Source: Ottowia thiooxydans
GTDB lineage: Bacteria > Pseudomonadota > Gammaproteobacteria > Burkholderiales > Burkholderiaceae_C
Direction: 5' to 3'
Length of the DNA stretch: 32,000 nucleotides
NCBI RefSeq assembly: GCF_040548795.1
Contig: NZ_JBEPSH010000008.1
Coordinates: forward strand, 4,310-36,309
Part shown: in pieces, positions 12,722 through 27,543 of the stretch
How the letters are laid out: every line of letters starts with the position of its first letter
How positions within the stretch are numbered: position 1 is the first letter of the stretch
Notes under the pieces: model-generated
Told to the model about the DNA's origin: nothing
What the model saw: the letters and a program-made list of their open reading frames with translations, nothing else
Databases searched by the model: none
Made by a program: the position numbers and the translations under genes

Positions 12722-13306
12722 TCAGCGACGTGAATAGACTTTACGGCTCAAAACTGCTCCTTCGTCCTGGAGCGGGGCCGGTGAGGTTTCTGTCGCATCG
12801 CGCAGTTGACCATCGCGATCGTGGTGCACCAGCAGTTGCCGGGTGCGTTGCCATGTGGAAAGCAATGCAGGAGGTACGGCAATGTAGGAAGCCAGTGCGA
12901 ACAAGGATGAATGCTCATATTTCGACGGCGCCTCGCGTTGGTCCTGCATGCGGCGCAAAGGTCCCATCACAAGCATGGAAAGAAGGATTACGCCGATCAC
13001 GATGGCATAGAGCCCCAACAGATGCCATACCTCAGGTTGGGATCGAGCTCCCAAAACGTAGGGCCAGGCATACCAGATCGCGCAGAACCAGATCGCGAGC
13101 GTGACCGCGGGGCGCAGCAGGCGCAACCACAAGAACATCACGAGAGCACGCTGCGGCGAACGCCCTGTGCCGAAGGCACTCAGAGGAATGCGCGCCGCAT
13201 CGATGATGGGCTCATCAACGTTGGGCTGGCCCCAGGAGCGTTGGCGTGTCGGTGGCGGCGATGAACGCTCGCGCGTTGCTGTAATGGAATCATTGTCGTG
13301 GTACAT
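12722..13306 (-). CDS. pgaD: PgaD-like PNAG biosynthesis membrane protein
   Basis: A small protein with two hydrophobic helices (ALVMFLWLRLLRPAVTLAIWFCAIWYAWPYVL and WHLLGLYAIVIGVILLSMLVM). It lies immediately after pgaC and overlaps it by 17 nt. Position and topology match PgaD, but the sequence family is poorly conserved, so the call is partly positional. Confidence 0.7.
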   Translation of the reverse strand: MYHDNDSITATRERSSPPPTRQRSWGQPNVDEPIIDAARIPLSAFGTGRSPQRALVMFLWLRLLRPAVTLAIWFCAIWYAWPYVLGARSQPEVWHLLGLYAIVIGVILLSMLVMGPLRRMQDQREAPSKYEHSSLFALASYIAVPPALLSTWQRTRQLLVHHDRDGQLRDATETSPAPLQDEGAVLSRKVYSRR

Positions 13307-14573
13307 CAGAAACTCCTCGGTCTGGGCTCGTCCATACCGCGCGTTTTCCGCGACGGCGTATCAGGGCCTTGGGAAGGGCGACGACCGTGGTGGCCATCGT
13401 GATAGTCCAGAATGCGATCGGATACCAGATCGTTCCGGCGAAATAGCGCAGCAGGTCGCGGTCGTAGCGACGGTCGATCCACAGGCTCACCAATATCTGC
13501 AGGATGCAGGTCATGGCCAGCAGCGTCCCCTGCCATTGCGGCAGCAGCGCCGAATGCCAGCTCGACTCCTGAGGCAGGAAGGGACGGATGAAGCTGATTG
13601 CAAGTACCAACACCATCGCGTAGGCCCACACCACACTCGTCATGTACTCGGCATAGATAAGCCACAGGCGCCAACTGCGCAGCCTCAGAATGCGAAGCGT
13701 GACGCGCAGCATGGTCTGAATGCCGCCTTCGGCCCAGCGAAGCCTCTGCTTCCACAAACCCCTTAGCGTCTCAGGCATGAGAATCCAGCAAAGTGCGCGA
13801 GGTTCGAAGCGCAGCCGCCAGCCAGCCAGCTGGAGCTTCCAGCTCATGTCAATGTCTTCGGTGAGCACATCCGTGCTCCAAAAACCCACGTCAATCACTG
13901 CACGGCGACGGAACATGGCCAGTACCCCCGACACCGTGAACAAAGTGCCGATCAGTTGCTGCGAGCGCTTGATGAGCCCAATGATTGAAGAGAACTCACC
14001 TACCTGCATGCGCCCCAGCACGGTGGTGCGCGTGCGGATACGCGGATTACCTGTGACTGCTCCGATGGTTTCCGAGGACAGCATGCGCTTGAGCAGCCAG
14101 GCAATGGCGTTTGGGTCGACCAGCGCGTCGCCGTCGATGCCCAGAATGTACTCACCGAGCGCGAGTTGACAGGCGGTGTTCAGACCCACTGCCTTTCCCT
14201 GATTGCTGGCATTGTGAATCACGCGCAGCCGCTCGAACTCCAGTGTCATGGCGTCGAGAAGCCGACCCGTCCCGTCGGTGCTGCCATCGTTAACGGCGAT
14301 CACCTCGTAGTTCGGGTAACGCGTGCGCATGAGCTGCTCGATCACCTCTCGCAGATGCGGCTCCTCGTTGAAGCAAGGCACCACCACAGTCACCAGCGGC
14401 AGCGAGGGCAGTTGCAAGAGCGGGTCCACTTCTACGTCTCGCTTGCGCTCGAATGACCATGCATGCGAGACACCGCCCGCCATCCATACCCACGCCATAA
14501 AGAAAGGGTAGTAGAAAACAAAGCCAAACAGCACCGGCGGGATCGAATCCAGCAAGAGGGCTAGCCCGTTCAT
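13290..14573 (-). CDS. pgaC: Poly-beta-1,6-N-acetyl-D-glucosamine synthase (GT2 family)
   Basis: VVVPCFNEE, VIAVNDGSTDGT, ILGIDGDALVD, and the QxxRW motif in LWKQRLRWAEGG, flanked by TM helices. The ATG at 14573 overlaps the pgaB stop as ATGA. The longer 14798 start in the track would run about 225 nt into pgaB. Confidence 0.93.
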   Translation of the reverse strand: MNGLALLLDSIPPVLFGFVFYYPFFMAWVWMAGGVSHAWSFERKRDVEVDPLLQLPSLPLVTVVVPCFNEEPHLREVIEQLMRTRYPNYEVIAVNDGSTDGTGRLLDAMTLEFERLRVIHNASNQGKAVGLNTACQLALGEYILGIDGDALVDPNAIAWLLKRMLSSETIGAVTGNPRIRTRTTVLGRMQVGEFSSIIGLIKRSQQLIGTLFTVSGVLAMFRRRAVIDVGFWSTDVLTEDIDMSWKLQLAGWRLRFEPRALCWILMPETLRGLWKQRLRWAEGGIQTMLRVTLRILRLRSWRLWLIYAEYMTSVVWAYAMVLVLAISFIRPFLPQESSWHSALLPQWQGTLLAMTCILQILVSLWIDRRYDRDLLRYFAGTIWYPIAFWTITMATTVVALPKALIRRRGKRAVWTSPDRGVSDVPRQ

Positions 14574-16642
14574 TGGGGTGCTCCCGTAGCCAGCGGTGCG
14601 GTTGAAGCACGGGCGCTGCGTGGCAAGGTGCGCGGCAATAAAGAACGCACGGAGATTGCGCGTCGCACTGTGTCCAGTGAGGGTTGATTGTTCAGAAAAT
14701 CGTCTGGGTAATAGCCCAGATGACGCACGCCAGCGCGCTGCAACAGAGTCCACTGTCGGGTCAGCTCTTCGTCGGATACTGGCTCGCCGGTTCGCCAATC
14801 GCGCGCCTGTAGTTCGAACACGGTGCCGTCCAGACCCCGGGGCGTGTCCGCCGCACGTCGGGCGAGGCGGCTTAGCCAGGCGTCGCTTTCAGCTGCAGTC
14901 CGGGCCTCCTGCTCCATGCGCGGCATCGCCATCAGGCCCACGTAGTCATAAGCTGCAAGCGAAGCTTCATAGTTCTGTGCGAACCATTGCTCAGCGGCGG
15001 GTTCAAGCACCGGCCGCGCGTAGAGGTTGCGGGCGGTCTCCAGGCCTGGGCGCCAAACGCGCACGCGGGCTGCCAACTCTTTCGTGAAGTCGATCAGGTG
15101 GCGGGTCTTTGCAGTGCTCCAGCGCTGCATCAGCATGGGGTCGGCGCGCAGCGTGGTCACGTCGGCCGGCATACCCCAGCTGCGATACGCTTCGAGCGCA
15201 GCAGAGCTCGCATCCTCGTCATCAGAGAGCATGGCGTCGTCATGAAACAGCAGGCCGGCAAAGTCGGCGTGGCGGCCAAGGTCTTCGTAAATGTCACCGA
15301 CCAACCCGCGTACCTCAGGGTCGAAAGGTGATAGGCGGTGGTAGCGGTCGGCGGGTGCTTGACCGTTCACAGAGCGGACGGTGCGCGTCGCGAGCGGGTT
15401 GGAAGCCGGCAGACGAAAGGCTGTGACCGGCATCCAAGCGTAGACCTTGACGCGGGCGCGGGTGCGCAGCTGCCAGGCCGCGCGCGCAAACAGGTCGGAG
15501 CGCATCGGCAAGTAGCGGTTGGGAAAGTACAGCTCGCTGGCCACGCCATCCCCATCGGGGTCGGCGTAGGCCTGCAGGAAAACCGAGCGTGGGCGCACGG
15601 CGGCCACTCGCTCGATCAGCGCAGAGAGATTTTGCTCCTGCCTGGCTGGGTCAGGGTCGTAGACGTAGTCCAGATCGACGTGCATGACACGGTTGATTGG
15701 CCGTACCTCGCCACCAGCCGGGCTACGCAGCATGTGCACGTAATCGGGGGCCGAGGCATCATAGGTAGCCAAGCCGCGGCGGATGCGCGTCAAAGGCACT
15801 CCCAGCGTGTTGGGGCCGGCATCGAGCGTCAAGGTGATCGGCATGCCCGCGCGCACTGAGGCATCTATCACAGGCGCGTTATAGGCTCCATAGGGCCAAA
15901 CGGTGGCACGCACTTTGGCGCCAGTGCGTGCTTCTATCAGTGCACGGCTGCGGCGCAAGTCGGCCTCAACGCGGTGCAAATAGGCCGCGTCGCTCTCGTA
16001 GCGGCCAGTCTCTGGATCGTAGCGGTGAGTAACCGCAGCCGGCATCAAGTTGCCCTGCGGATTGCCCTGAATGCCGGTATGCATCTCATGGGTATGCGTA
16101 GCGAATTCGACCAGTGGAGAGCGTGCCATCTCGGCCGCCTCACTCCAGAGCAGGAAATTCTCGCGTGGAACGGGCTTGTCGCCCCAGGGCACAAGTTGGC
16201 CTTCGGGCACTTCCAGCCAGCTCGTCACCAAGGCGAACACCGCCGGGTAATCAAAGCGCTGAAGCAGTGGAAACACCTTGGTGTAGGCGCTTCGGTAGCC
16301 ATCGTCGAACGTGAGCAGGACAGGTTTCGGTGGCAGTGGCTTGCCGCCGGAGCGCGATTCCGTGATCTGCTGCAGACTGACCGGCCGGTAGCCGCTGTAC
16401 TGCAGCCACGCGAACACCTCGGTGAGCGTGCGCTCGTCAAGGGCGGTATCGTCGGGCGCCGCCTCAAAGCTCGCGCGCACGTTGGAGCGTACGTCGTGGA
16501 ACGCGATTACTCGAAAGTCGGCCCCGTTGACGGGATCGGCTGCTGGCAGTCGCTGCGCCGAGGCGGGCCATAGGGGTGCCAGAAGCAACCCGAACAGCAC
16601 AGCACGCAGCCATTGGTAGAGGAAGAAGGAAGTTCTTTTCAC
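14570..16642 (-). CDS. pgaB: Poly-beta-1,6-N-acetyl-D-glucosamine N-deacetylase (CE4 deacetylase domain plus C-terminal glycoside-hydrolase-like domain)
   Basis: 690 aa. CE4 motifs LLTFDDGYRSAY and FATHTHEMHTG. The long C-terminal domain matches the PgaB/BpsB layout. It has a signal peptide ending PASAQ with no Cys. The GTG start overlaps the pgaA stop as GTGA. Confidence 0.92.
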   Translation of the reverse strand: MKRTSFFLYQWLRAVLFGLLLAPLWPASAQRLPAADPVNGADFRVIAFHDVRSNVRASFEAAPDDTALDERTLTEVFAWLQYSGYRPVSLQQITESRSGGKPLPPKPVLLTFDDGYRSAYTKVFPLLQRFDYPAVFALVTSWLEVPEGQLVPWGDKPVPRENFLLWSEAAEMARSPLVEFATHTHEMHTGIQGNPQGNLMPAAVTHRYDPETGRYESDAAYLHRVEADLRRSRALIEARTGAKVRATVWPYGAYNAPVIDASVRAGMPITLTLDAGPNTLGVPLTRIRRGLATYDASAPDYVHMLRSPAGGEVRPINRVMHVDLDYVYDPDPARQEQNLSALIERVAAVRPRSVFLQAYADPDGDGVASELYFPNRYLPMRSDLFARAAWQLRTRARVKVYAWMPVTAFRLPASNPLATRTVRSVNGQAPADRYHRLSPFDPEVRGLVGDIYEDLGRHADFAGLLFHDDAMLSDDEDASSAALEAYRSWGMPADVTTLRADPMLMQRWSTAKTRHLIDFTKELAARVRVWRPGLETARNLYARPVLEPAAEQWFAQNYEASLAAYDYVGLMAMPRMEQEARTAAESDAWLSRLARRAADTPRGLDGTVFELQARDWRTGEPVSDEELTRQWTLLQRAGVRHLGYYPDDFLNNQPSLDTVRRAISVRSLLPRTLPRSARASTAPLATGAPQ

Positions 16643-19278
16643 TGCAAAGGCATCGAGAGATTCAGGAACACGCCGTGCTGTCGTTCATTCACGCCGTCGT
16701 ATGGATGGCTGCCCAAGCTCAGGCCATAGCGCAAGGTGAGCTTTTGACCCAGAGCCCAGTTGTGTTCGTAACGCAGACTCCAAAGCGGGCCGCGACCAAA
16801 GTCGGCCTGGTGATAGCTGCCACCTGCGAGCTCGACCGCCTGGATGAATTGGCGGTCGTCTCGTTTCCAGCTGAGCCACTGGCCGCGCACGGCAATCTGC
16901 GCGCTGGCGTCGCGCGAGGGACTGAAGTAGCGCACGTCCTGCAGCCGGGTATGGCTGGTGTCCGCGCCCAGACGGGTTTCGAGTTGAAAGCGCGGAGTGC
17001 TGATCCAGCGCTCGCGCCAACCAAAATCGAAGCTGTCGCGCAGGTTGCCGTCACTGAAGTCGAGCCGGCGCCATTGCAGGTCGAAGCGACGCGACTCATT
17101 GAGCAGGTAGGTCACACTGGCGCCGAAGTCGCGCGCACCGATGGACTGCGCGCCAAGAGGGACGACCCGCGCCTTCCATGGCAATTCCTTACTGTCGCCG
17201 TCATAGCTCGCCGACAGCCGCCAGGCGTCGCTGGCGCGGTAAGCGATGCGGCCAGCCACGCTGCTGCGATAGGGGCCAGCATTCGAATGCTGCAACACGC
17301 CCTCGGCCAGCCAGCGACCTTGTTGCCAGCTCAGACCGAGGCCGCCGCGCGCCAACCTGGCACTGCCCTCCAAGGTGTCGCCGCGGCCCAGGGACTGGTC
17401 ATAGAAGACGCGCCAGGCGTCGGCAATCAAGCCGGTGCTGAGCCGGCTGTCGGCGCGCCATTCGCGGCCCGCCAGCGCGGTGCCGCCGCGCGAGCCTTCG
17501 GCGCTGAGTTCAAGTTGCGCGCCCACCAGCGAGCGCCGCTTGATCTCCATCTCGCGGACCTGGTGTGCATCGGGTGCGTCGGCGAGAACCCCTTCGGCGC
17601 GCTGTCGAGCCTCACGGAATTCGCCGGCATTGAGCAGCGCCTCCACATGACCAATACGGGTGCTCACGTTGTCAGGATGGTTGGCTGCCAGTGCCTCAAA
17701 GCGTGCGACGGCAGCCTCGGGATGCTCTCGCAACCGTTCAGTGAGCGCGGCACCGGATGCAAAGCCGGAATTGAGTGGCGCCTCGCCGGTCAAGGTGACA
17801 AAGCGCGGTTGTGCAATCTTCGGCCGGTCACCGTAGAGCTGCAGAAGGGAGTCCATGCCGGCAACGGACGAGTATTGTTCGTTAGGACGCCCGGCTTCTG
17901 GCGCGAGCCGCATAGTGGCAGGGGTGTCATCTTCCATGCGCTTTAGCAGCGATTCAGCGTCATCGAAGCGGCCAGTATCCAGGTACGCATAGACCAGGCC
18001 GAAAGACAGATCGTCTGACACCGGCAGATCAGCCAAGGCCTTCTCGAAAAGTGGAACGGCGTCGGCCGACCGGCGCACTTGTGCCATCGCACGGGCCACC
18101 ACGCCCAGCGCATAGGCCGGTAGTTCAGTGTCGGCAGCAAGCAGCGTCTCATACTGCGCAATGGTCTCGGCAGGACGGCCACGCTCCAGCAACGCCAGCA
18201 TGTGGTCAGACTGCAGCCGCACGCGCAGCGTGCGCCAGTTGTCAGCATCCTGAGGGGTTGATTGCGCAGCTCCAGCGTCGAGCCGCGCTTGAGCTGATCT
18301 CTGATCAACCAGAACCCGGTCAATCTCAGCAACGCGTGCCGGGCCGAGCCGTTGGTCGCGAGCCTTCACGGCCCAGCGTAGACGCTGGGCCAGGGCCTGC
18401 TGTTCGAGTGTGGCCAATGCCAACGCTGAGAACGCCCCCGGATGAGCGTGCTGAATGTCCTTGGCATCCTCAAAAGCTGCCGATGCGCCGCCCTGCTCCG
18501 CCAGCAAAAAGCTGGCCTCGCGCTGCGCATCGTGGCGCTCGGATTGCAGTTTGATGACGTTTCTGTAGGCTGCTAACGCCTGGTAGGGCTCTCCGAGCGC
18601 ACGCGCCAGCGCCGCTTGCAGGTCCAGCAACGCCACACGATCCGAGATCGCCGTGGGTGTCGGCTCCGACAGCGCACGGTAGATCGCCTGCGCGCCCGTT
18701 GTATCTTTTACCGCCAGTCGCCAGAAGGCTTCGTGAATACGTGGATTGCGAGCCTCTGGCTGGCGTACCCGCCAGACTTGGATGGTTTCGCCCTGTTGTG
18801 CCAGATCGCCCATTCTTCGCGCAGCAATGGCCAGCGGTTCCAGTGCGTAGTCGTCAAGCTCGGCGGCAGGCGTCTGGCGTCCTAGCTCCACAGCATCGGC
18901 GAACCGCCCATCCGCGACGGCGATGACGATAGCGTCAGAGGCCACGCGACGGCGCTGTGTGGCGTCCAGTGGCACAGCCAGCCATTGACGTAGCTGTTGT
19001 AGAGCTTGCACTGCAGTCATCCGGCCGTCGCGGCGGGCCACGATCAGAGCGTCGTGCGACTGCGGATCATAGGCTAACGCTTCGCCAGAAGAACCAGAAG
19101 GCATTGACGCAACGCCGGCGCCGGAGAACGAAGCGATGCCAGCACCAAAGGTGAGCACGCAGACAATCGGCAAACAATTCCGCACAGCACTGATCAGACG
19201 GTTCGGCACTGCCTTGGCAAGTGCAATTTCACACCCTGCAACGACAGTGCCTCTATTTCTTTGTGTATAGATAGACAC
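16639..19278 (-). CDS. pgaA: PNAG export outer-membrane porin with periplasmic TPR domain
   Basis: 879 aa. An alanine/leucine-rich TPR-like N-terminal two-thirds is followed by a C-terminal beta-barrel-like region with alternating aromatic and polar residues (WRADSRLSTG...YGLSLGSHPYDG). It is the first gene of the pga operon. The GTG start at 19278 is preceded by GGGAG with a 4-nt spacer, but the start is not certain. Confidence 0.88.
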   Translation of the reverse strand: MSIYTQRNRGTVVAGCEIALAKAVPNRLISAVRNCLPIVCVLTFGAGIASFSGAGVASMPSGSSGEALAYDPQSHDALIVARRDGRMTAVQALQQLRQWLAVPLDATQRRRVASDAIVIAVADGRFADAVELGRQTPAAELDDYALEPLAIAARRMGDLAQQGETIQVWRVRQPEARNPRIHEAFWRLAVKDTTGAQAIYRALSEPTPTAISDRVALLDLQAALARALGEPYQALAAYRNVIKLQSERHDAQREASFLLAEQGGASAAFEDAKDIQHAHPGAFSALALATLEQQALAQRLRWAVKARDQRLGPARVAEIDRVLVDQRSAQARLDAGAAQSTPQDADNWRTLRVRLQSDHMLALLERGRPAETIAQYETLLAADTELPAYALGVVARAMAQVRRSADAVPLFEKALADLPVSDDLSFGLVYAYLDTGRFDDAESLLKRMEDDTPATMRLAPEAGRPNEQYSSVAGMDSLLQLYGDRPKIAQPRFVTLTGEAPLNSGFASGAALTERLREHPEAAVARFEALAANHPDNVSTRIGHVEALLNAGEFREARQRAEGVLADAPDAHQVREMEIKRRSLVGAQLELSAEGSRGGTALAGREWRADSRLSTGLIADAWRVFYDQSLGRGDTLEGSARLARGGLGLSWQQGRWLAEGVLQHSNAGPYRSSVAGRIAYRASDAWRLSASYDGDSKELPWKARVVPLGAQSIGARDFGASVTYLLNESRRFDLQWRRLDFSDGNLRDSFDFGWRERWISTPRFQLETRLGADTSHTRLQDVRYFSPSRDASAQIAVRGQWLSWKRDDRQFIQAVELAGGSYHQADFGRGPLWSLRYEHNWALGQKLTLRYGLSLGSHPYDGVNERQHGVFLNLSMPLQ

Positions 19279-19770
19279 TCAACTCCCTGAACCCGAACTT
19301 CTCTCAGACCTGATCAGCCATAACAAGAAAGCTCTCAAAAAAAACAATAACCAAACAACCATTCCGCATTAACGCTTCAGCAGGGGCATCATAAAAACAA
19401 TATTCAATAATTCTTCAACCCCATATATATTTAGAATGGATTTGCGTGAAATATTTTTTGGTTTTTTAGTTTAATTTTTGGATAAGCACCCAAGAGTTCA
19501 ACGTTCCGCTCTTGTCGCAACACATTGCTATTAAATGGAAATTACTTATTTCCATTTAAATTTGCTTCAATAGCAATAAAAAGAAGTATTTCTTAAAGCC
19601 CAAAAACCACCCACCCCAGGGAATTTATCCACCATGCTGGCATTCGTGTCTCTTTGCATATATTGTTTCCGCACGAAAAAATACCCAACTCTCATTAACA
19701 AACCCCATAAATCTTAAAAATACAGTACTCACCGTTAATCGCGGCGGGTTAAAAACTACCGCTTTAATAT
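19279..19770 (-). promoter_or_regulatory. AT-rich upstream/leader region of the pgaABCD operon
   Basis: My hand count over 19321-19740 gives 143 G+C in 420 nt, about 34%. A pgaA coding line (17401-17460) counted 41 of 60. There is no credible ORF. The region contains A-tracts and a nested palindrome. The position of the promoter within it was not determined. Confidence 0.5.
19524..19577. repeat. Nested inverted repeat (candidate operator or leader RNA hairpin) upstream of pgaA
   Basis: Perfect 12-bp arms: TTAAATGGAAAT (19531-19542) and ATTTCCATTTAA (19548-19559), with the 5-nt spacer TACTT. Outer arms are ATTGCTAT (19524-19531) and ATAGCAAT (19570-19577). Verified base by base. Confidence 0.85.
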
Positions 19771-20132
19771 TCAATCGAAATGATTGCAAGGAATTCCTGC
19801 CGTGATAACGGATGGCCCTGAGTGGTGATGGAGTCTTAAGCTCGTGCTCACATACGGATCACTTGAACCGTGTGCTTCGAACACTCGTGGTGTTGGCCTC
19901 GCGTTGACCTTGGCAGCGAGACCAAGCAACTCGCGTGGCACCAGGGAATCGAATTGAATTCCGACCATCGCGCGCATGACCGCAGGGAGGAGTCGGATCC
20001 GATGGAGACAAAACGGGCAGCCAACCGCGCGCGGGTTGGTGCAACCAGGTTGAAGCGAGGCCTCAGTGAGCGGACAAATTTGGCTGGAAACCGCAAAGCT
20101 CCGACAACGCAGAGTGCATACGCAACGCTTGC

Positions 20133-21020: not shown

Positions 21021-21090
21021 CAGAATTTCTGAATTAATTGGTCATATAAGTCAACTTTACAGAATATAGAGCACCAACGAGCATTCAGTC
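21021..21090. promoter_or_regulatory. AT-rich region upstream of the LysR gene containing short dyads
   Basis: CAGAA-T-TTCTG dyad at 21021-21031, TTCTGAATT at 21027-21035 and a second CAGAAT at 21060-21065. The function is inferred only from position next to the LysR start codon. Confidence 0.4.
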
Positions 21091-21300
21091 ATGGCAAACA
21101 CAGACTCCCATGACGACTTGCAGCCCGTGAACGCTGAGCGACTAATCACCCGATATGCAGCCAGTGGCCTCATTAACGAAAGCGCCCGCGTCACCCAGCC
21201 TGGGCGCCTTGCCCGTTGGTGGGGTTGCGTGCAGCGTCTGCTGGCCAAAGCTGAGAAAAAGGTCACTGAGAACTTTCGGGTCCCTCCACACGGCGGCTAA
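21091..21300 (+). CDS. Hypothetical small protein (69 aa); coding status uncertain
   Basis: An ATG ORF divergent from the LysR gene with a 70-bp spacer. Third-position GC is moderately high. There is no strong Shine-Dalgarno sequence and no recognisable motif. Confidence 0.3.
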   Translation: MANTDSHDDLQPVNAERLITRYAASGLINESARVTQPGRLARWWGCVQRLLAKAEKKVTENFRVPPHGG

Positions 21301-21507
21301 GGATGGCTAAGGGCCGCTAAGGAGTTCAGATCGTCCGTCGACAACCGAAGGCAACCCGTAGCCTGGGTACCCCACGTAGATCATCCCTATGAGTTCTTGT
21401 AGGAAATCATGCCGTCCTGGGCCTCCAGCGGCAAAAGTGCCATTTCCTCCGATAGACCTGCCCCATAATTCCCGGCGAACTAAATAAGTCATGCATAAGG
21501 GGTTGCC

Positions 21508-22341
21508 GTGGAAAAGAGCTATAGCATTTTGGCCAGTCTGCTGGAGAACGAAGAATCTCAAGTACTGGATCAATGGATTCTCAGCGCCGGAGGCTCTGCT
21601 TCTCCCAAAGTGCGCGCTGAGGTAGCCCCTATTCTTGACAAGCTGCGCGCTGCAGTTCAATCGAATGAGCCCCTCACCTCTGGCTCTGGTGCATGGAAAC
21701 CGCTCAATGCTGCCCTGGAAGCCCTGTCTGCTTCGCGTGCCGCGCAAGGTACTACGGCGGGAAGCACAAGTGCCTTGGTGCTTGCTTTAAAGCAACCTGT
21801 TTTCGCAGCGCTGCAAAAGTCGCTTTCTTCAGACAGTCAAGCCTTGTTGGAAGCCATCACGGAGTCTTCCAAGCTCATTGACGTCATGGCCCAATGGACT
21901 GCCGACTCGTATCAACGGAGCCGAGATCAACTGATCGCTCGGCAACAGGAAGAATTGCTGGAGCTGTCCACGCCAGTCATCAAGCTATGGGATGGCATCT
22001 TGGCTGTTCCGATGATTGGAACGCTGGATTCCAGCAGAACCCAGGTCATCATGGAAACGCTGTTGCAACGCATCGTGGAAACCGAGGCATCGATAGCCAT
22101 CATTGACATCACCGGGGTCCCCACCGTTGACACCCTGGTTGCGCAACATTTGCTTAAAACGGTCACTGCGATTCGGTTGATGGGCGCTGACTGCATCATC
22201 AGCGGCATTCGTCCGCAGATCGCTCAGACCATTGTTCATTTGGGAATTGATCTTCAGTCAGTGGCCTCAAAAGCCACCCTGGCTGACGCTCTTGATCTGG
22301 CGCTGAAACGCATCGGCTACACCTTCACCAAGATCAAGTGA
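21508..22341 (+). CDS. rsbR: RsbR-like stressosome sensor protein (N-terminal helical sensor domain plus C-terminal STAS)
   Basis: GTG start preceded by AAGGGG with a 5-nt spacer. The C-terminal half, ELSTPVIKLWDGILAVPMIGTLDSSRTQVIMETLL...IDITGVPTVDTLVAQHLLKTVTAIRLMGADCIISGIRPQIAQTIVHLGIDL, closely parallels B. subtilis RsbRA as I recall it. Confidence 0.88.
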   Translation: MEKSYSILASLLENEESQVLDQWILSAGGSASPKVRAEVAPILDKLRAAVQSNEPLTSGSGAWKPLNAALEALSASRAAQGTTAGSTSALVLALKQPVFAALQKSLSSDSQALLEAITESSKLIDVMAQWTADSYQRSRDQLIARQQEELLELSTPVIKLWDGILAVPMIGTLDSSRTQVIMETLLQRIVETEASIAIIDITGVPTVDTLVAQHLLKTVTAIRLMGADCIISGIRPQIAQTIVHLGIDLQSVASKATLADALDLALKRIGYTFTKIK

Positions 22342-22350
22342 GGTTGAGAG

Positions 22351-22725
22351 ATGTACCGTATTCCGATACTGCGCATGGGACGAACGCTGCTGGTCACCAT
22401 TCAGATTGATATGGAAGACCAGACCGCCATGGCGCTGCAGAACGACCTTGCGGAGCAGATTGTCAAAACGGGGGCCAGAGGTGTACTGATTGATATCTCT
22501 GCATTAGAGATTGTTGACTCATTCGTGGGAAGAATGTTGGCCGGCATCTCGAGCATTGGGAAGATTCTTGACGCAACCACCGTCGTAGTCGGCATGCAAC
22601 CTGCCGTGGCCATCACGTTGGTGGAGCTGGGCCTTTCCCTGGATGGTGTCAAAACCGCGCTCAATGTGAGCAAAGGCATGGCCCTTCTAGAGGCTGCTGC
22701 TCAAGGAGATTCTTTTGTCACTTGA
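22351..22725 (+). CDS. rsbS: RsbS-like single-STAS stressosome scaffold protein
   Basis: 124 aa. IPILRMGRTLLVTIQIDMEDQTAMALQNDL...GVLIDISALEIVDSFVGRML...VVGMQPAVAITLVELGL parallels B. subtilis RsbS. The conserved Ser is in the DSF motif (Ser57, nt 22519-22521). Confidence 0.9.
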   Translation: MYRIPILRMGRTLLVTIQIDMEDQTAMALQNDLAEQIVKTGARGVLIDISALEIVDSFVGRMLAGISSIGKILDATTVVVGMQPAVAITLVELGLSLDGVKTALNVSKGMALLEAAAQGDSFVT

Positions 22726-23119
22726 CACTCACGGCTCTGAGCCACTCCGCAGTGAAGCGGATATTGTGTTGTGTCGTCAGACAGTGAGAAGGCTCACTGG
22801 CGAACTCAAATTTTCACTGGTCGATCAAACCAAGATGATCACGGCCGCCAGCGAATTGTCGCGAAACACCCTCGTGTACGGCGGCGGGGGCGACATGGAA
22901 TGGGAACTGCTGAGCGACGGAATCAAACGTGGGCTTCGACTGAAGTTCAGAGATTCTGGCCCTGGCATACCCGACCTCAGTCTTGCACTCAAGGATGGCT
23001 GGACATCAGGCAAGGGCATGGGTCTGGGCCTTTCCGGCAGCAAGCGCCTGGTCCATGAGTTTGAACTCGAATCGGCCGTAGGTGTAGGCACCTGCGTCAG
23101 CGTGACCCGTTGGAAATAA
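22715..23119 (+). CDS. rsbT: RsbT-like serine/threonine kinase (GHKL anti-sigma-type kinase)
   Basis: 134 aa. ADIVLCRQTVRRL..., N-box SELSRNTLVYG, DSGPGIPD and GKGMGLGLSGSKRL. The TTG start at 22715 lies 6 nt after AAGGAG and overlaps rsbS by 11 nt. Confidence 0.88.
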   Translation: MSLDTHGSEPLRSEADIVLCRQTVRRLTGELKFSLVDQTKMITAASELSRNTLVYGGGGDMEWELLSDGIKRGLRLKFRDSGPGIPDLSLALKDGWTSGKGMGLGLSGSKRLVHEFELESAVGVGTCVSVTRWK

Positions 23120-24117
23120 TAGGCGGCTCCAGCCACGTTTCGTTTCCCATGGAAGATGCCAGCCGTGTGGGCGAAGCTCGTCGGCACGTGGCCAGCCTGT
23201 GCAGCGAACTCGCCTTCGACGAAGTCCTTTCTGGACAGGCAGCCATCGTTGTGAACGAGCTTGGAAACAATCTCTGCAAACACGCGGTCCGTGGGCAGCT
23301 TTGGATTGCTTGTCGCAAGGGAAACGTTCCCGAAATCGAAATTCTGTCGGTGGATGAAGGGCCAGGAATCGGCGACCTCACTCTGGCAATGAGCGATGGG
23401 TACTCGACTGCCAGCTCCCCAGGTACTGGCCTCGGAGCAGTGCAACGGCTTTCTACGGATTTCGACATTCATTCCGAGGCTGGCAAGGGAACGGTGGTTT
23501 TGACGCGCTTTCGCGCAGCCCCCCACAAACAACGAGCATTCACTTGGGGTGTAGTGGCATTTCCCGCCCCTGGAGAACGCGTATGCGGCGATAGCTGGGC
23601 GCTCGCATTCAAGGGTCAACAGGCCGCCATGTTGGTAGCCGATGGACTCGGTCATGGCGAGCTTGCGGCAGAAGCCTCTCAAGCAGCTGTCGGGGTGTTC
23701 GAGAAGGACCCCTTTGCCGAATTGCAGGATTCTTTGGAAGAGTCTCACGTCGTTCTGAGAATGACGCGCGGCGCCGCCGTGACCCAGGCTCAATTGGATG
23801 CGGATTCCAATAATTTGACTGCCGTCGGTGCGGGTAATGTCATGATCCGTGTGGCCAATGGGGTTTTCAATCGCGCCGTACTTCCTCAAAATGGCACTGT
23901 GGGCCTCCAGATACGCCGCGTCGAAAAAACCGCCATGCAGTGGCCTGCTCATGCCTTGGTGGTGTGCCACAGCGACGGCCTTCAGTCTCGGTGGCCACCA
24001 GAGGCGATCACATCTCTGCTTGGGAAGGATCCGGCGTTAGCCGCAGCCATCCTGGTCCGAGATTACGTTCGAGGGCGAGACGATGTCACGGTCATGGTTG
24101 TGCGCCGAAACGACTGA
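23110..24117 (+). CDS. Fusion protein: N-terminal RsbT/RsbW-like HATPase domain plus C-terminal PP2C/SpoIIE phosphatase (RsbX-position gene)
   Basis: Kinase-like motifs: VVNELGNNLCKHA, VDEGPGIGD, GTGLGAVQRL. Phosphatase motifs: VCGDSWA, LVADGLGHG, VVCHSDGL, GRDDVTVMVV. The TTG start at 23110 overlaps rsbT by 10 nt. The first ATG (23149) would cut off the conserved first strand, SHVSFP. Confidence 0.88.
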   Translation: MEIIGGSSHVSFPMEDASRVGEARRHVASLCSELAFDEVLSGQAAIVVNELGNNLCKHAVRGQLWIACRKGNVPEIEILSVDEGPGIGDLTLAMSDGYSTASSPGTGLGAVQRLSTDFDIHSEAGKGTVVLTRFRAAPHKQRAFTWGVVAFPAPGERVCGDSWALAFKGQQAAMLVADGLGHGELAAEASQAAVGVFEKDPFAELQDSLEESHVVLRMTRGAAVTQAQLDADSNNLTAVGAGNVMIRVANGVFNRAVLPQNGTVGLQIRRVEKTAMQWPAHALVVCHSDGLQSRWPPEAITSLLGKDPALAAAILVRDYVRGRDDVTVMVVRRND

Positions 24118-24120
24118 GAG

Positions 24121-25074
24121 ATGGATATGAACGATTTGACAGCAGGTGGTGGTGGCAGTCGAGGCAATCAGGTCAATCAAGGCGATTGCGTTTCAGACAG
24201 CCAGAACAAGGACATGGAGCGCCGCTTGGCTGAAGCGCAAGCAGAGGTTGAGTCTTTGCGGTCCGAGCTGGAGGAGACCAATCGCGGCGTCGTCGCGCTT
24301 TATGCTGAGCTGGATTCGCAAGCTGACCATCTAAGGCAAGCCACGGAACTCAAAAGCCGCTTTCTCGCCTATATGAGCCACGAGTTCAGAACGCCCATTG
24401 GTGCTATTCAAAGCATAGCGCGAATCCTACAGGACAAAGTCGATGGTCCACTGACTGAAGAACAGGAAAGACAGGTCCAGTTCATTCAAACCACCTCGGC
24501 CGAGTTTGCAGAAATGGTCAACGACCTGCTGGACCTTGCGAAGGTTGAAGCGGGACGTATTGAAGTCTCGCCGGCATGGTTTGAGATGGTCGACGTGTTC
24601 GCTGCACTGCGTGGCATGTTCAAGTCTGTAATCATCAACCCCGATGTGACCTTGCTTTTTGAGGAACCAGAGAGTGTTCCCAAGATGTTCACTGACGACC
24701 GTAAACTGGCTCAGATCTTGAGGAACTTCATCAGCAATGCGTTGAAGTTCACCCTCCAAGGGGAGGTCCGCGTCAGTGCCATCCGAGTTCCCGGAGACCG
24801 AGTGCAATTTGCAGTGTCTGATACCGGAATCGGTATAGCGCCTGAATTTCACGACGCCATTTTTCAAGATTATTCCCAGATCGACTCACCCATTCAGAAG
24901 CGCCTCCGAGGGACCGGCCTTGGGCTGTCCCTCAGCAAGAAGCTGGCAGAGCTGCTGGGCGGGACCGTCTCAATTGAAAGCGAATCCCATAAGGGCTCCA
25001 CGTTTTTTGTGACCATACCGATTCAGATGGATGTCCAAACCGACTCCACCGCGAGCGAACTCAAACACTCCTGA
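24121..25074 (+). CDS. Cytoplasmic histidine kinase (coiled coil, HisKA, HATPase_c; no TM or sensor domain)
   Basis: H-box FLAYMSHEFRTPIGAI, N-box NFISNALKFT, G1 DTGIGI, F-box FQDYSQ, G2 GTGLGLSLSKKL. The N-terminus is Gly-rich, then a heptad-like helix ERRLAEAQAEVESLRSELEETNRGVVALYAELD. No hydrophobic helices are present. Confidence 0.92.
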   Translation: MDMNDLTAGGGGSRGNQVNQGDCVSDSQNKDMERRLAEAQAEVESLRSELEETNRGVVALYAELDSQADHLRQATELKSRFLAYMSHEFRTPIGAIQSIARILQDKVDGPLTEEQERQVQFIQTTSAEFAEMVNDLLDLAKVEAGRIEVSPAWFEMVDVFAALRGMFKSVIINPDVTLLFEEPESVPKMFTDDRKLAQILRNFISNALKFTLQGEVRVSAIRVPGDRVQFAVSDTGIGIAPEFHDAIFQDYSQIDSPIQKRLRGTGLGLSLSKKLAELLGGTVSIESESHKGSTFFVTIPIQMDVQTDSTASELKHS

Positions 25075-25078
25075 AGAC

Positions 25079-27064
25079 ATGTCTACCATTTCTGCCAGGC
25101 TCAATGTCAGCATCGATCGGTCCAAGCACACCGTTTTGGTGGTCGATGACAACCCTGTGACCTGCTATGCAACCTCTCGTTCGCTGCGGGCCGCTGGCTT
25201 TCAAACGATTGAGGCGGGAACAGGAAGACGGGCTTTGGAGCTCTCGGTGGGAGATGTGTCCGCCGTCGTGCTTGATGTGCATTTACCCGATATGGGGGGC
25301 TTCGACGTTTGCCGCGAAATCCGTGCGAATGAGATCACACGGGCTCTGCCTGTGTTGCACCTTTCCGCGGCCTTCGTCAAGGATGCAGACAAGGTAGCGG
25401 GCTTGGAAGCTGGGGCGGATGCATACCTCACGCACCCCGCGGAGCCTGCGATGTTGGTGGCAACCGTGCAAGCCCTGGTACGTGCACGGCTGGCCGAGAA
25501 GAAAGTCCACCAAAGTGAAGCGAAGTTTCGATCAATCTACGAACAGGCGCAGAGTGGCATCGCCTTGATCAATGATGACGGCCGATTCACTGACGCGAAT
25601 CCCGCCTTGCTTGAGATGATGGGACGCACCGCTGAAGACGTGCTCGGTCGGCCTGTGGCGGAATTCGCCGCACCAGGCCATGAGGAGCATATTCAGCACA
25701 TCATGGCGGCGCAAAACACCCAGTCCCTGTGGCGGGAAGATGTCGTGTTGTTTGACGCGAGCGGTGAGTTGCTTCACCTCGAATGGAGTATGGCTCCGGG
25801 CGCTCGGGGCGAATTGCGTGTGGCGGCTGTCGCGAACGTTTCAGATCGCATTCAGCTGGAACAAGAGCGCAAGCTCTTGCTGGAACGAGAGCAGGCCGCG
25901 CGCGCCACTGCTGAACGCTACAGCCGTTCAAAAGACGATTTCGTTGCCGTGCTTTCCCACGAGCTTCGCAACCCGCTGGCCGCCATCATTATGAATGTGC
26001 ACCACCTCATTCGGAAGTCGCCGCCTCCAGAGCTGGCAAAGAGCATCGACGCGATCAAACGCAATGCCAATACTCAAGCGCGCATCATCAGTGACATTCT
26101 GGACGTGTCGAGGATCAGCTCAGGCAAGCTGACGCTGGAGCGCGAATGGGTTGAACCCGACTCGCTTATCTCTTCGTCCCTGGACTCCATGAAGCCCGCC
26201 ATGGACGCCAAGCACTTGACGCTTGATCTGCAAATGCAGACTGGCAGCAGAAATGCACTTTTGGATCCCGCGAGGTTTCAGCAAATATTCTGGAATATTC
26301 TGAACAACGCCATCAAGTTTTCTAACGAAGGCGAACGCATCGAGGTGAGTCTGAGCACGCACGAGAACGATCTGATCCTCACAGTGCGAGATCACGGAAG
26401 AGGCATTGAGGCGAGCTTTCTCAATCACATCTTCGAAAAATTCACCCAAGTCGCGACCCCTGGGAGCAAGTCCACAGGAGGCTTAGGGCTTGGGCTTTCG
26501 ATTGTTAAGCACTTGGCTGAATTGCACTCTGGCGATGTCACCGTGTCCAGTCCCGGCATTGGGCTAGGCACCACGGTGAAAGTGACCTTGCCCGAAAGCC
26601 TTTCGCCCGTTGGAGAAGCTCCAGATCAGGATTCGAAGTGGAGCGAGCTCAATGATGGAACGGAAGAGCTCAACGGCATTCGTATTTTGGTCGTAGAAGA
26701 CGATCAGGAAGCAGCCGATCTGCTCGGCTTGATTCTTCAGGAACGCGGCGCTACTGTCAGCATTTCAGGAGATTATGAGGCTGCAGTGGCCTCGCTTGAG
26801 AGGACCGGAGCAGACCTTCTCATCAGCGACATAGGCCTGCCGGGTAAAGACGGCTATGAACTCATCCGCCATGTACGAGCCTCTTCAAGCCCGTACTCCC
26901 GCATACCTGCCATCGCTTTGACTGCCTTTGGGCGCGAGGCGGACAAACAAGCTGCCATCGCTGCGGGGTTTGATCTTCACTCAGCCAAGCCACTTCAACC
27001 GCAGAAACTGCTCGTCGCTATCAAGTCGTTGATGGCTAGTGGCTCGCCATCAGGTTCAGCGTGA
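25079..27064 (+). CDS. Hybrid sensor kinase: REC, PAS, HisKA, HATPase_c, REC
   Basis: REC1: VLVVDDNP...VVLDVHLPDMGG...LHLSAAF. PAS-like: FRSIYEQAQSGIALINDDGRFTDANPALLEMMGR. H-box: VLSHELRNPLAAI. N-box: NILNNAIKFS. G-boxes: DHGRGI and GGLGLGLSIVKHL. REC2: ILVVEDD...LISDIGLPGKDG...ALTAF...SAKP. An alternative start at 25031 would overlap the upstream gene by 44 nt. Confidence 0.92.
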   Translation: MSTISARLNVSIDRSKHTVLVVDDNPVTCYATSRSLRAAGFQTIEAGTGRRALELSVGDVSAVVLDVHLPDMGGFDVCREIRANEITRALPVLHLSAAFVKDADKVAGLEAGADAYLTHPAEPAMLVATVQALVRARLAEKKVHQSEAKFRSIYEQAQSGIALINDDGRFTDANPALLEMMGRTAEDVLGRPVAEFAAPGHEEHIQHIMAAQNTQSLWREDVVLFDASGELLHLEWSMAPGARGELRVAAVANVSDRIQLEQERKLLLEREQAARATAERYSRSKDDFVAVLSHELRNPLAAIIMNVHHLIRKSPPPELAKSIDAIKRNANTQARIISDILDVSRISSGKLTLEREWVEPDSLISSSLDSMKPAMDAKHLTLDLQMQTGSRNALLDPARFQQIFWNILNNAIKFSNEGERIEVSLSTHENDLILTVRDHGRGIEASFLNHIFEKFTQVATPGSKSTGGLGLGLSIVKHLAELHSGDVTVSSPGIGLGTTVKVTLPESLSPVGEAPDQDSKWSELNDGTEELNGIRILVVEDDQEAADLLGLILQERGATVSISGDYEAAVASLERTGADLLISDIGLPGKDGYELIRHVRASSSPYSRIPAIALTAFGREADKQAAIAAGFDLHSAKPLQPQKLLVAIKSLMASGSPSGSA

Positions 27065-27108
27065 GGTCAAGCTTCCGTTCACCGTAGTTTGCCCTGCGCA
27101 GAGTGGAT

Positions 27109-27543
27109 TCAGGGAGAGCTCTGAAGCATCGCACGCTCAAGTCCCAGAAGCTTTTTTTCAAGCTCTTCGGGTTCACTGCTTTTGAGCAAAGCCGTCACAT
27201 TAGGTCCTATCGATTCCAGACCACTGTTCATTTCATAACCGGACAGCAAAAGTATGAACCGGTCTTTATTCGGCTGCAACCAATGCCTGGCCAAATCGGT
27301 CCCTGACATTCCGGGCAAACTGATGTCGGTTATCAATACATCAAACTCTTGATCATCAGCGGCAGCCAGCGCGGCCTCGGCGTGAGGCACTGACACAATC
27401 TTTCGGTGTTCGGCCTCCATGAAGGATGCCACCACCTCTCGGATATCTTCGTCGTCTTCGACGTAGAGATAGGAAATCATACTTTGCGGCTCGTTAACCC
27501 CAAGACGAGGGAACTGTGAAAGCGTTATGAATTTTCTGAGCAT
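27109..27543 (-). CDS. Single-domain response regulator (REC only)
   Basis: YLYVEDDEDIREVV...FDVLITDISLPGMSGTDL...ILLLSGY...ALLKS. No output domain is present. An alternative start at 27480 (MISYLYVEDD) would give a more typical REC N-terminus. Confidence 0.88.
   Translation of the reverse strand: MLRKFITLSQFPRLGVNEPQSMISYLYVEDDEDIREVVASFMEAEHRKIVSVPHAEAALAAADDQEFDVLITDISLPGMSGTDLARHWLQPNKDRFILLLSGYEMNSGLESIGPNVTALLKSSEPEELEKKLLGLERAMLQSSP

Follow-up and report, generated by a model that had tools for sequence, protein, structure and literature searches.

The 32,000-nucleotide stretch of Ottowia thiooxydans DNA analysed here (contig NZ_JBEPSH010000008.1, positions 4,310–36,309 of the forward strand; called the window below, with coordinates counted from its first base) contains a stressosome gene cassette that appears to signal through a histidine kinase of its own. 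Six genes on the forward strand encode, in order, an RsbR-like protein, an RsbS-like protein, an RsbT-like serine kinase, a fusion of a HATPase domain to a PP2C phosphatase, a soluble histidine kinase (HK5) and a hybrid histidine kinase. By the sequences of the encoded proteins, the locus is confirmed as a real stressosome gene set. The reading that we favour, and hold to be somewhat better than an even chance, is that HK5 is the dedicated output of this stressosome module, that an RsbT-type domain acts on the HK5 stalk, and that the RsbX-type fusion protein serves as the reset. New here are a dedicated family of kinases with a common stalk motif, the reciprocal linkage of this family to the rsb genes, and fusions of an RsbT paralogue to the kinase in relatives.

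HK5 (24121–25074, forward strand) is made up of 317 amino acids and contains a HisKA domain (E-value 2e-17 in Pfam) and a HATPase_c domain (3e-27), with nothing recognisable by Pfam before residue 78. In the AlphaFold2 (AF2) model, residues 1–23 are disordered and are followed by a single uninterrupted helix (residues 24–104), which leads as a coiled-coil linker into the H-box of the dimerization and histidine phosphotransfer (DHp) domain; the HATPase_c domain comes last. The phospho-accepting residue is His87, in the H-box SHEFRTP. As a preliminary description of the locus had stated, neither a sensor nor a membrane domain is present, judging from Pfam and the model. The stalk helix carries the sequence LRSELEETNRGVVALYAELD (residues 46–65; 24256–24315, forward strand), which is near-invariant across phyla and for which an alignment of pre-H-box regions gives the consensus L-x-x-E-L-E-[ED]-T-N-R-G-V-[VL]-A-L-Y-A-E-L-[DN]. 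Its family-defining part, the near-invariant helix motif ELEETNRGVVALYAEL, lies 34 residues upstream of the phospho-histidine, and the family signature ELE[ED]TNRGV[VL]ALYAEL is found in HK5 at residues 49–64. The distance from the motif threonine to the phospho-histidine is 34 amino acids in 150 of 152 members and 41, exactly one heptad more, in the other two. The motif region is predicted to be helical (predicted local distance difference test, pLDDT, of about 90), is not covered by any Pfam model, and is located immediately N-terminal to HisKA in every full-length member examined. A full hidden Markov model (HMM) scan with the stalk-motif profile, used instead of a word-indexed search with a 50-residue stalk fragment that had returned 17 short fragments, covered 1.84 billion representatives and detected 1,270 clusters at 50% identity. 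On this evidence HK5 can be classed as a member of a dedicated kinase family defined by the stalk motif, and the motif is a candidate for the place where RsbT-type domains dock on the kinase or modify it.

The N-terminus ahead of the motif is less well defined. HK5 is 100% identical to an O. thiooxydans protein, and since NCBI annotates forms of both 315 and 286 amino acids, translation may actually begin at Met32 (ATG at 24214). The first 30 or so residues (residues 1–31, 24121–24213) are of low complexity, predicted to be disordered and not conserved. A degenerate RsbU_N domain was considered for this N-terminus and ruled out, as Pfam does not detect one and the model has the helix 24–104 and no helical bundle. 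Some metagenomic members of the family (P0121, P0127 and many entries with two matching stretches) appear to contain the motif TNRGVVALYAEL twice in tandem; none of the 164 fetched loci has a tandem motif.

The stalk kinases and the rsb genes accompany each other. A genome scan for the fourth gene, which gave nothing with a single-protein query, gave 80 loci with an alignment as query, spread over Comamonadaceae, Oxalobacteraceae, Gammaproteobacteria, cyanobacteria (Microcoleus), Gemmatimonadota, Acidobacteriota, Planctomycetota, Myxococcota, Bdellovibrionota and Verrucomicrobiota. Linkage was tallied for 84 loci seeded with this gene, in which domains were mapped with HMMER. A kinase with the stalk motif is the next gene in all 76 loci with at least 2 kb of downstream sequence, and RsbR, RsbS and RsbT are encoded upstream in 73 of the 74 loci with enough upstream sequence. 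When the search is turned round and metagenomes are scanned with the stalk motif alone (pattern GVVALYAEL), the HATPase-PP2C and RsbR-S-T genes are found beside the kinase in 55 of the 57 loci whose flanks are long enough; of the remaining two loci, one has a permuted cassette that is truncated where the contig ends. In four relatives with long contigs the same six genes are flanked by unrelated genes on both sides. The stalk kinase family and the rsb genes are near-obligate neighbours of each other across at least nine phyla, and also on plasmids: the cassette occurs on 96 plasmid records of PLSDB (58 from Phaeobacter, 17 from Deinococcus, seven from Streptomyces, the others including Xanthomonas), for example on Deinococcus radiodurans MP1 (L165, 25219–31023) and on pXVH29 of Xanthomonas vasicola (L166). 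The location on plasmids and the scatter of the cassette over many phyla suggest its frequent horizontal transfer as a self-contained module.

It would be hard to reconcile this co-occurrence, in overlapping or abutting reading frames, with rsb and kinase genes that are merely adjacent and functionally independent, or with an RsbT whose target is an RsbU-RsbV-RsbW-sigma cascade elsewhere in the genome, and we give both proposals very little credence. The preliminary description had tied the kinases to the rsb genes, and as far as comparative genomics reaches (76/76 and 55/57 loci) they do not behave as independent units. It had also found no rsbU, rsbV, rsbW or sigma factor gene in the window, with which our scans of the open reading frames (ORFs) agree: an RsbU-RsbV-RsbW-SigB output linked to rsbRST is absent from the 32 kb, and no sigma factor was found among the window ORFs scanned against Pfam (the large ORFs and those in intergenic gaps). 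RsbV, RsbW and sigma factors are likewise not annotated in six related loci whose genes were identified by Pfam or RefSeq labels. We know of no SigB-type sigma factors in Betaproteobacteria.

The relatives also contain natural fusions. In 30 of the 76 loci, the HK5 orthologue is a longer protein of 450–750 amino acids in which Pfam domains are arranged as HATPase_c_2, linker, stalk motif, HisKA and HATPase_c, often with one or two receiver domains; examples are found in Microcoleus, Janthinobacterium, Massilia, Acidobacteriota, Gemmatimonadota and Deinococcus. The fused HATPase_c_2 domain keeps the N, G1 and G2 boxes and is 37% identical to the RsbT encoded at the same locus, compared with 27% between RsbT and the corresponding domain of the fourth gene product and 25% between the latter and the fused domain. 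By these values it is classed as an RsbT paralogue, and the separate RsbT gene is retained in the loci with the long form. The short form of the kinase is present in the window analysed here, in other Comamonadaceae, in some Planctomycetota and on one Xanthomonas vasicola plasmid; in the window, the only RsbT-type domains available to it are free RsbT and the N-terminus of the fourth gene product. Histidine kinases usually carry their input domains at the N-terminus. By a Rosetta-stone argument, fusion at this end points to the RsbT-type domain as an input of the kinase and to the stalk motif as its target. The earlier guess that the coiled-coil N-terminus of HK5 may be a target of RsbT gains support from the near-invariant motif and these fusions.

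A further architecture was observed in an Aquabacterium metagenome-assembled genome, which has two copies of the cassette on two contigs (L039 and L084). The kinase of the second copy (573 amino acids) has the order stalk, PAS, HisKA, HATPase and REC in Pfam, which shows that stalk and DHp domain can be separated by a PAS domain.

The first three proteins of the cassette are, judged by similarity, close relatives of stressosome proteins of known structure. The RsbR-like protein (21508–22341, forward strand), a co-antagonist and sensor by type, consists of an N-terminal RsbRD_N domain (7.6e-15 in Pfam), which is of the non-haem globin type, and a C-terminal STAS domain (9.8e-14). In a phmmer search of the PDB it matches Vibrio vulnificus RsbR (7o0i_B) with an E-value of 2.2e-38 across residues 105–276 and Listeria RsbR with about 5e-30. 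Its Ser175 aligns with Thr171 of Bacillus subtilis and Thr175 of Listeria, and its Thr209 with Thr205 and Thr209, respectively; the Vibrio protein likewise has a serine at the position equivalent to B. subtilis Thr171. The N-terminal sensor, the related C-terminal STAS domain and the conserved phospho-acceptor positions are those of an RsbR-type protein. The RsbS-like protein (22351–22725, forward strand) is of the scaffold type, with a single STAS domain (6.2e-9 in Pfam). It shares about 50% of its residues with B. subtilis RsbS in the cryo-electron microscopy structure of the stressosome (6jhk_A, 1.5e-29), and also matches Listeria RsbS (9e-29) and Moorella MtS (4e-24) in the PDB. Its Ser57, in the sequence VDSF, aligns with the serine that is phosphorylated in B. 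subtilis (Ser59, in IDSF); this is the conserved DSF serine to which attention had been drawn previously. The RsbT-like protein (22715–23119, forward strand) is a GHKL serine kinase of 134 amino acids (HATPase_c 3e-10, HATPase_c_2 1.6e-4 in Pfam) with intact N-box, G1 and G2 motifs when compared with the family consensus. SpoIIAB (5e-5) is its sole match in the PDB sequence search, and no RsbT reference sequence was matched. The rsbT gene is the third gene in every cassette, and here its frame overlaps rsbS by 11 nucleotides. By analogy with their solved relatives, RsbR and RsbS would assemble into a pseudo-icosahedral complex of about 1.8 MDa that sequesters RsbT.

The fourth gene (23110–24117, forward strand) encodes a phosphatase with an additional domain. 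Its N-terminal part (approximately residues 1–140) is an RsbT/RsbW-like HATPase_c_2 domain (1.5e-8 in Pfam), in which Asn54, the D82xGxG motif and the G105xGxG motif are invariant among homologues. The C-terminal part (approximately residues 147–335) matches SpoIIE in Pfam below the cut-off (1.9e-4) and is confirmed as a PP2C domain by PDB sequence and fold matches; its metal-binding motifs GD161, D178GLGHG, D289G and D324D325 are invariant in the same alignment. The best PDB sequence matches of this half are Moorella MtX (3zt9, 1.1e-10) and B. subtilis RsbX (3w40, 2.5e-8). The AF2 model of the protein has a pLDDT of 89 and a predicted template-modelling score (pTM) of 0.90. When it is compared with known structures by Foldseek, 3zt9 (template-modelling score, TM, 0.90) and 3w40 (TM 0.83) rank above SpoIIE, RssB and Rv1364c. 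Sequence and predicted fold identify the protein as an RsbX with an extra RsbT/RsbW-like domain; it has the features of an RsbX-type feedback phosphatase, for which an N-terminal HATPase_c_2 domain is atypical. More than 6,500 homologues were found. Assignment as an RsbU analogue was ruled out by the RsbX/MtX-type sequence and fold and by the lack of an RsbU_N domain.

The sixth gene (25031–27064, forward strand, or probably from the ATG at 25079) follows HK5 in all Comamonadaceae-type cassettes. Its product has the Pfam domain order REC-PAS-HisKA-HATPase-REC, with the phospho-histidine His310 in the H-box SHELRNP. The first receiver domain (REC1, encoded within 25079–25500) keeps the acidic pocket, the phospho-aspartate and the Ser/Thr residue, and has a histidine in place of the conserved lysine (GADAYLTHP, residues 129–137 approximately). 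This histidine is found throughout the Comamonadaceae-type family, and in an alignment the position is variable in the other type; REC1 may be an atypical or pseudo-receiver. The seventh gene (27109–27543, reverse strand), encoding a CheY-like single-domain receiver (REC, 1.4e-13 in Pfam), does converge on the 3' end of the cassette, as had been noticed. Its linkage to the cassette is confined to the Comamonas/Acidovorax/Ottowia clade (loci L001, L002, L005, L006 and L039), and it is absent from, for example, Variovorax and most other Comamonadaceae loci. Two HisKA phospho-histidines (His87 and His310) and three REC domains with an acidic pocket and aspartate provide the parts of a phosphorelay. 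The locus had been described as wired to a two-component phosphorelay; the kinases and receivers of that description are in place, and the term is not strictly borne out, the window having neither an Hpt domain nor an output domain. The Hpt protein and the terminal output regulator may be unlinked.

Signalling might instead run in reverse or in parallel. The kinases and receivers, with the PAS domain as sensor, might regulate the stressosome or the PP2C protein, in the way of RsbK-RsbY in Bacillus cereus, or the fourth gene product might be an RsbU-like target of RsbT with an unlinked STAS/anti-sigma output. Partner switches under two-component control are known from RsbK/RsbY (PMC9912610, PMC4574943), the PAS domain is an independent point of input, no output domain is linked to the cassette, and the fourth gene sits where rsbU sits in Bacillus. 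Its PP2C domain, however, resembles RsbX in sequence and fold, not RsbU, RsbP or RsbY, and is accompanied by no receiver domain; the RsbT paralogue of the relatives is fused to the input end of the kinase; and RsbV, RsbW and sigma factors are missing from the window and from the annotation of the six related loci mentioned above. Reversed or parallel flow is, in our judgement, decidedly improbable.

For the favoured reading, with HK5 as the output of the stressosome, we infer the contacts between the proteins, the course of the signal and its final output as follows. RsbR and RsbS would form the STAS core, with RsbT as the switch kinase, and by homology a signal at the RsbRD_N domain would alter the RsbT-dependent phosphorylation of RsbS at Ser57 and of RsbR at Ser175 and Thr209. 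Released RsbT would engage the coiled-coil stalk of dimeric HK5 at ELEETNRGVVALYAEL, in a fixed helical register with His87. This engagement would switch HK5 autophosphorylation, a step modelled on the B. subtilis system, where RsbT activates RsbU by ordering its coiled-coil linker; the same logic has been proposed for kinases and cyclases, and kinases with RsbU_N domains occur in stressosome operons (PMC12143880). In many other lineages the coupling would be hard-wired, with the RsbT paralogue as a cis-fused N-terminal domain of the HK5 orthologue. Phosphorylated HK5 would feed REC1 of the sixth gene product, a second kinase tier that would also receive input through its PAS domain, and the signal would exit via the C-terminal receiver of this protein, the convergent receiver or both, towards an unlinked effector. 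The PP2C fusion protein, recruited by its own RsbT-like domain, would dephosphorylate the STAS core as a reset.

A more general proposal is that RsbT-type HATPase_c_2 domains, free or fused, are portable input modules of histidine kinases, which read the state of the stressosome and gate autophosphorylation by docking on the stalk motif or by phosphorylating its threonine (Thr53). The RsbT-like domain on the RsbX phosphatase would share the same docking logic. We put this forward tentatively, as a possibility that we would sooner doubt than assert. If true, it would amount to a previously undescribed, phylum-spanning coupling of a Ser/Thr partner-switch machine to His-Asp signalling.

Coupling might also be covalent, in place of docking. 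RsbT or the RsbT-like domain of the fourth gene product would then phosphorylate Thr53 of HK5 and disrupt or re-register the coiled coil, and the PP2C domain would remove the phosphate, so that its substrate would be the kinase, either in addition to the STAS core or in its place. Within the stalk motif Thr53 does not vary, the ATP-binding motifs are kept in all three RsbT-type paralogues, and a kinase-phosphatase fusion directly upstream of HK5, with translational coupling, fits a pair of writer and eraser; Heinz et al. suggested a mechanism of this kind for Vibrio after a negative two-hybrid test (PMC9237108). The threonine is, however, at what a heptad reading suggests is a core position within a continuous predicted helix, whereas the known substrates of RsbT and RsbW are Ser/Thr residues at the helix N-terminus of STAS folds. 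The residues around it (Asn, Gly, Ala, Leu and Tyr) vary as little as the threonine itself, a pattern more in keeping with a binding surface than with one phosphorylated residue. We regard covalent coupling, the main rival to the favoured reading, as unlikely.

Several observations weigh against HK5 as an RsbT-driven output as outlined above. HK5 has no match to RsbU_N in Pfam at E ≤ 0.01, and therefore the docking mode known from Bacillus is not simply transferable. The free RsbT proteins of loci with the short kinase are no closer to the fused paralogue than those of loci with the long kinase (109 versus 113 bits), so there is no sequence sign of free RsbT taking over the role of the fused domain. 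In the two-hybrid test on the V. vulnificus proteins, no interaction was observed between RsbT and D1 (PMC9237108). The missing lysine of REC1 calls ordinary phospho-activation of this receiver into question. Finally, no receiver with a DNA-binding or enzymatic output is present among the window ORFs scanned against Pfam, and in the related cassettes that were annotated by Pfam or RefSeq labels there is neither an Hpt domain nor a receiver with an output domain.

Stressosomes with a kinase as output were known before. RsbRST modules with outputs other than sigma factors, among them two-component systems of alpha-, beta- and gamma-Proteobacteria, have been on record since a survey of 2005 (Pane-Farre et al., related in PMC10014275 and PMC9237108), and Heinz et al. 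describe eleven downstream architectures for clusters with a globin-type RsbR, HisKA/REC phosphorelays included, in which the associated RsbX is single-domain (PMC9237108). Structural and genetic studies exist for the RSTX-D1D2 locus of V. vulnificus (PMC9237108, PMC10014275, PMC4976288); its downstream two-component system is co-expressed with rsbRSTX and is the presumed output (PMC9237108, PMC10014275). The preliminary description had referred to alternative outputs in Proteobacteria and to the Vibrio locus, and had called the coupling of RsbT to a kinase unsolved, and these sources, as far as they relate the surveys, say the same (PMC9237108, PMC10014275 for the former; PMC9237108 for the latter). 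The arrangement is less unusual than that description implied: it is common, being present in many phyla and on plasmids, and its recognition goes back to Makarova 2001 and Pane-Farre 2005 (cited in PMC6501615 and PMC9237108). The cassette family is a large one that was noticed early and never characterised. The searchable literature, in which the surveys of 2001, 2005 and 2017 are represented at second hand, contains no description of the RsbT-like-RsbX fusion, of the RsbT-paralogue-kinase fusion or of the stalk motif.

When the Ottowia cassette is compared with the loci of V. vulnificus and V. brasiliensis, they have in common a Gram-negative RsbR-RsbS-RsbT set, an RsbX-type phosphatase and subsequent two-component proteins, without sigma B, and the STAS half of V. 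vulnificus RsbR is the best PDB match of the Ottowia protein (7o0i_B). The cassette departs from the Vibrio type in four ways, namely its sensor, phosphatase architecture, kinase family and lack of an output related to cyclic di-GMP (c-di-GMP). The Vibrio RsbR sensor is a haem globin, whereas the Ottowia protein has RsbRD_N and no similarity to 7o0i before residue 105. The Vibrio-type RsbX is described as single-domain (PMC9237108), whereas that of Ottowia is fused to an RsbT-like HATPase domain. The Vibrio kinase VvD1 is PAS-containing and has more than 1000 amino acids, and HK5 is a sensorless protein of 317 residues with the stalk motif. The Vibrio locus has a c-di-GMP-related response regulator as its output, whereas no c-di-GMP domain is present in the Ottowia window (no GGDEF, EAL or HD-GYP among the ORFs scanned).

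With B. subtilis and Listeria, the cassette shares RsbS, the phosphorylation sites, a GHKL kinase of the size of RsbT and the PP2C fold of RsbX. In these bacteria the output is RsbU-RsbV-RsbW-sigma B, whereas in the Ottowia window RsbU_N, RsbV, RsbW and a sigma factor are lacking and the effector is presumably the histidine kinase; unlike in Bacillus and Listeria, RsbX is encoded directly after RsbT and has the extra kinase-like domain. Moorella thermoacetica MtR-MtS-MtT-MtX provides the best match, in sequence and in structure, to the PP2C half (MtX), and another non-sigma output, the diguanylate cyclase MtG with domains RsbU_N-GAF-GGDEF (Quin et al. 2012, as cited in PMC4976288 and PMC12143880). 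MtX is single-domain, and compared with the Moorella cyclase the proposed Ottowia output is a kinase with a different, motif-bearing stalk.

Like the fourth gene product, Mycobacterium tuberculosis Rv1364c (PDB entry 3ke6) has a domain resembling a GHKL serine kinase and a PP2C domain on one polypeptide. The domain order is the opposite one, and in the fold search with the fourth gene product this structure ranks well below RsbX and MtX. Streptomyces OsaC is another multidomain protein with an RsbW-like kinase and a PP2C domain. Both Rv1364c and OsaC differ from the Ottowia protein in additional PAS, GAF or STAS domains, an RsbU-like PP2C domain and action on sigma-factor partner switches.

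The same six genes are present on megaplasmid MP1 of Deinococcus radiodurans R1 (DR_B0024–DR_B0029), encoding two STAS proteins, an anti-sigma regulatory factor, a HATPase-PP2C protein, a stalk-motif kinase and a REC-kinase. The differences are that the stalk kinase is of the long form, with an N-terminal RsbT paralogue and a C-terminal receiver, that the second kinase has neither the PAS nor the C-terminal REC domain, and that the cassette is plasmid-borne. Co-regulation of the Deinococcus kinases with the neighbouring operon for anti-sigma-factor regulation has been suggested (Makarova 2001, as reported in PMC6501615). Apart from omics data, in which DR_B0028 is raised after vacuum exposure (PMC6501615), the Deinococcus cassette is uncharacterised too.

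Stressosomes occur in many bacteria without sigma B, and their route of signalling in such bacteria is a recognised problem (PMC9237108). The cassette described here provides a simpler and far more widespread test case than that of Vibrio: a soluble kinase of 317 amino acids, without any other sensor, and a candidate interface of 16 residues. The natural cis-fusions indicate which domain addresses which, and the D. radiodurans genes are a genetically tractable homologue. Recent work indicates that RsbT itself may sense stress in Bacillus (PMC11821858), which lends added interest to the fusions of RsbT-type domains with a kinase and with a phosphatase. Should the favoured reading be true, the coiled-coil linker model of PMC12143880 would reach beyond phosphatases to histidine kinases and gain a receiver element of a new type.

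The layout of the locus, with six ORFs on one strand and a convergent seventh, and the previously reported coordinates and lengths of all junctions are reproduced in our analysis, and the domain assignments of all seven proteins were upheld by Pfam and by PDB sequence and fold matches. The junctions are, in order, a 9-nucleotide gap, overlaps of 11 and 10 nucleotides, a gap of 3 nucleotides and an overlap of 44 nucleotides; the last becomes a gap of 4 nucleotides if the sixth gene begins at the ATG at 25079. The fourth gene has an alternative start at the ATG at 23149, giving a form of 322 amino acids that is found in many homologues, with which the 10-nucleotide overlap becomes a 29-nucleotide gap. 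A local homology scan of ORFs of at least 50 amino acids detected no further STAS, RsbT-like, HATPase_c_2, PP2C, histidine kinase or REC ORF in the window. None of the seven proteins reaches the cut-off of an NCBIfam model, Rfam has no match in the window, and the small intergenic ORFs have no Pfam match, Hpt included. Promoter and terminator scans of the window performed no better than on shuffled sequences and are therefore silent on operon structure.

Between rsbR and a divergent LysR gene there is a gap of 487 nucleotides (21021–21507), in which no promoter-like site was found above chance; it contains an ORF of 69 amino acids (21091–21300, forward strand) with no Pfam match. An antisense ORF of 381 amino acids (22825–23970, reverse strand) runs across rsbT and the fourth gene, and because it overlaps these well-supported genes on the opposite strand, it is presumably a shadow ORF. 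The other genes of the window encode, according to Pfam, a peptide ABC transporter, two LysR regulators, the products of a pgaABCD operon and a flavin reductase, among others. The pgaABCD-type operon, for the biofilm polysaccharide poly-N-acetylglucosamine, is complete and lies 2.2 kb from the stressosome cassette (12722–19278, reverse strand), an adjacency that is not kept in relatives. It consists of the genes for PgaA (16639–19278), PgaB (14570–16642), PgaC (13290–14798) and PgaD (12722–13306), all on the reverse strand. The pga leader (19279–19840) is about 560 nucleotides long, non-coding and unusually AT-rich, with a GC content of about 46% compared with about 58% for the window.

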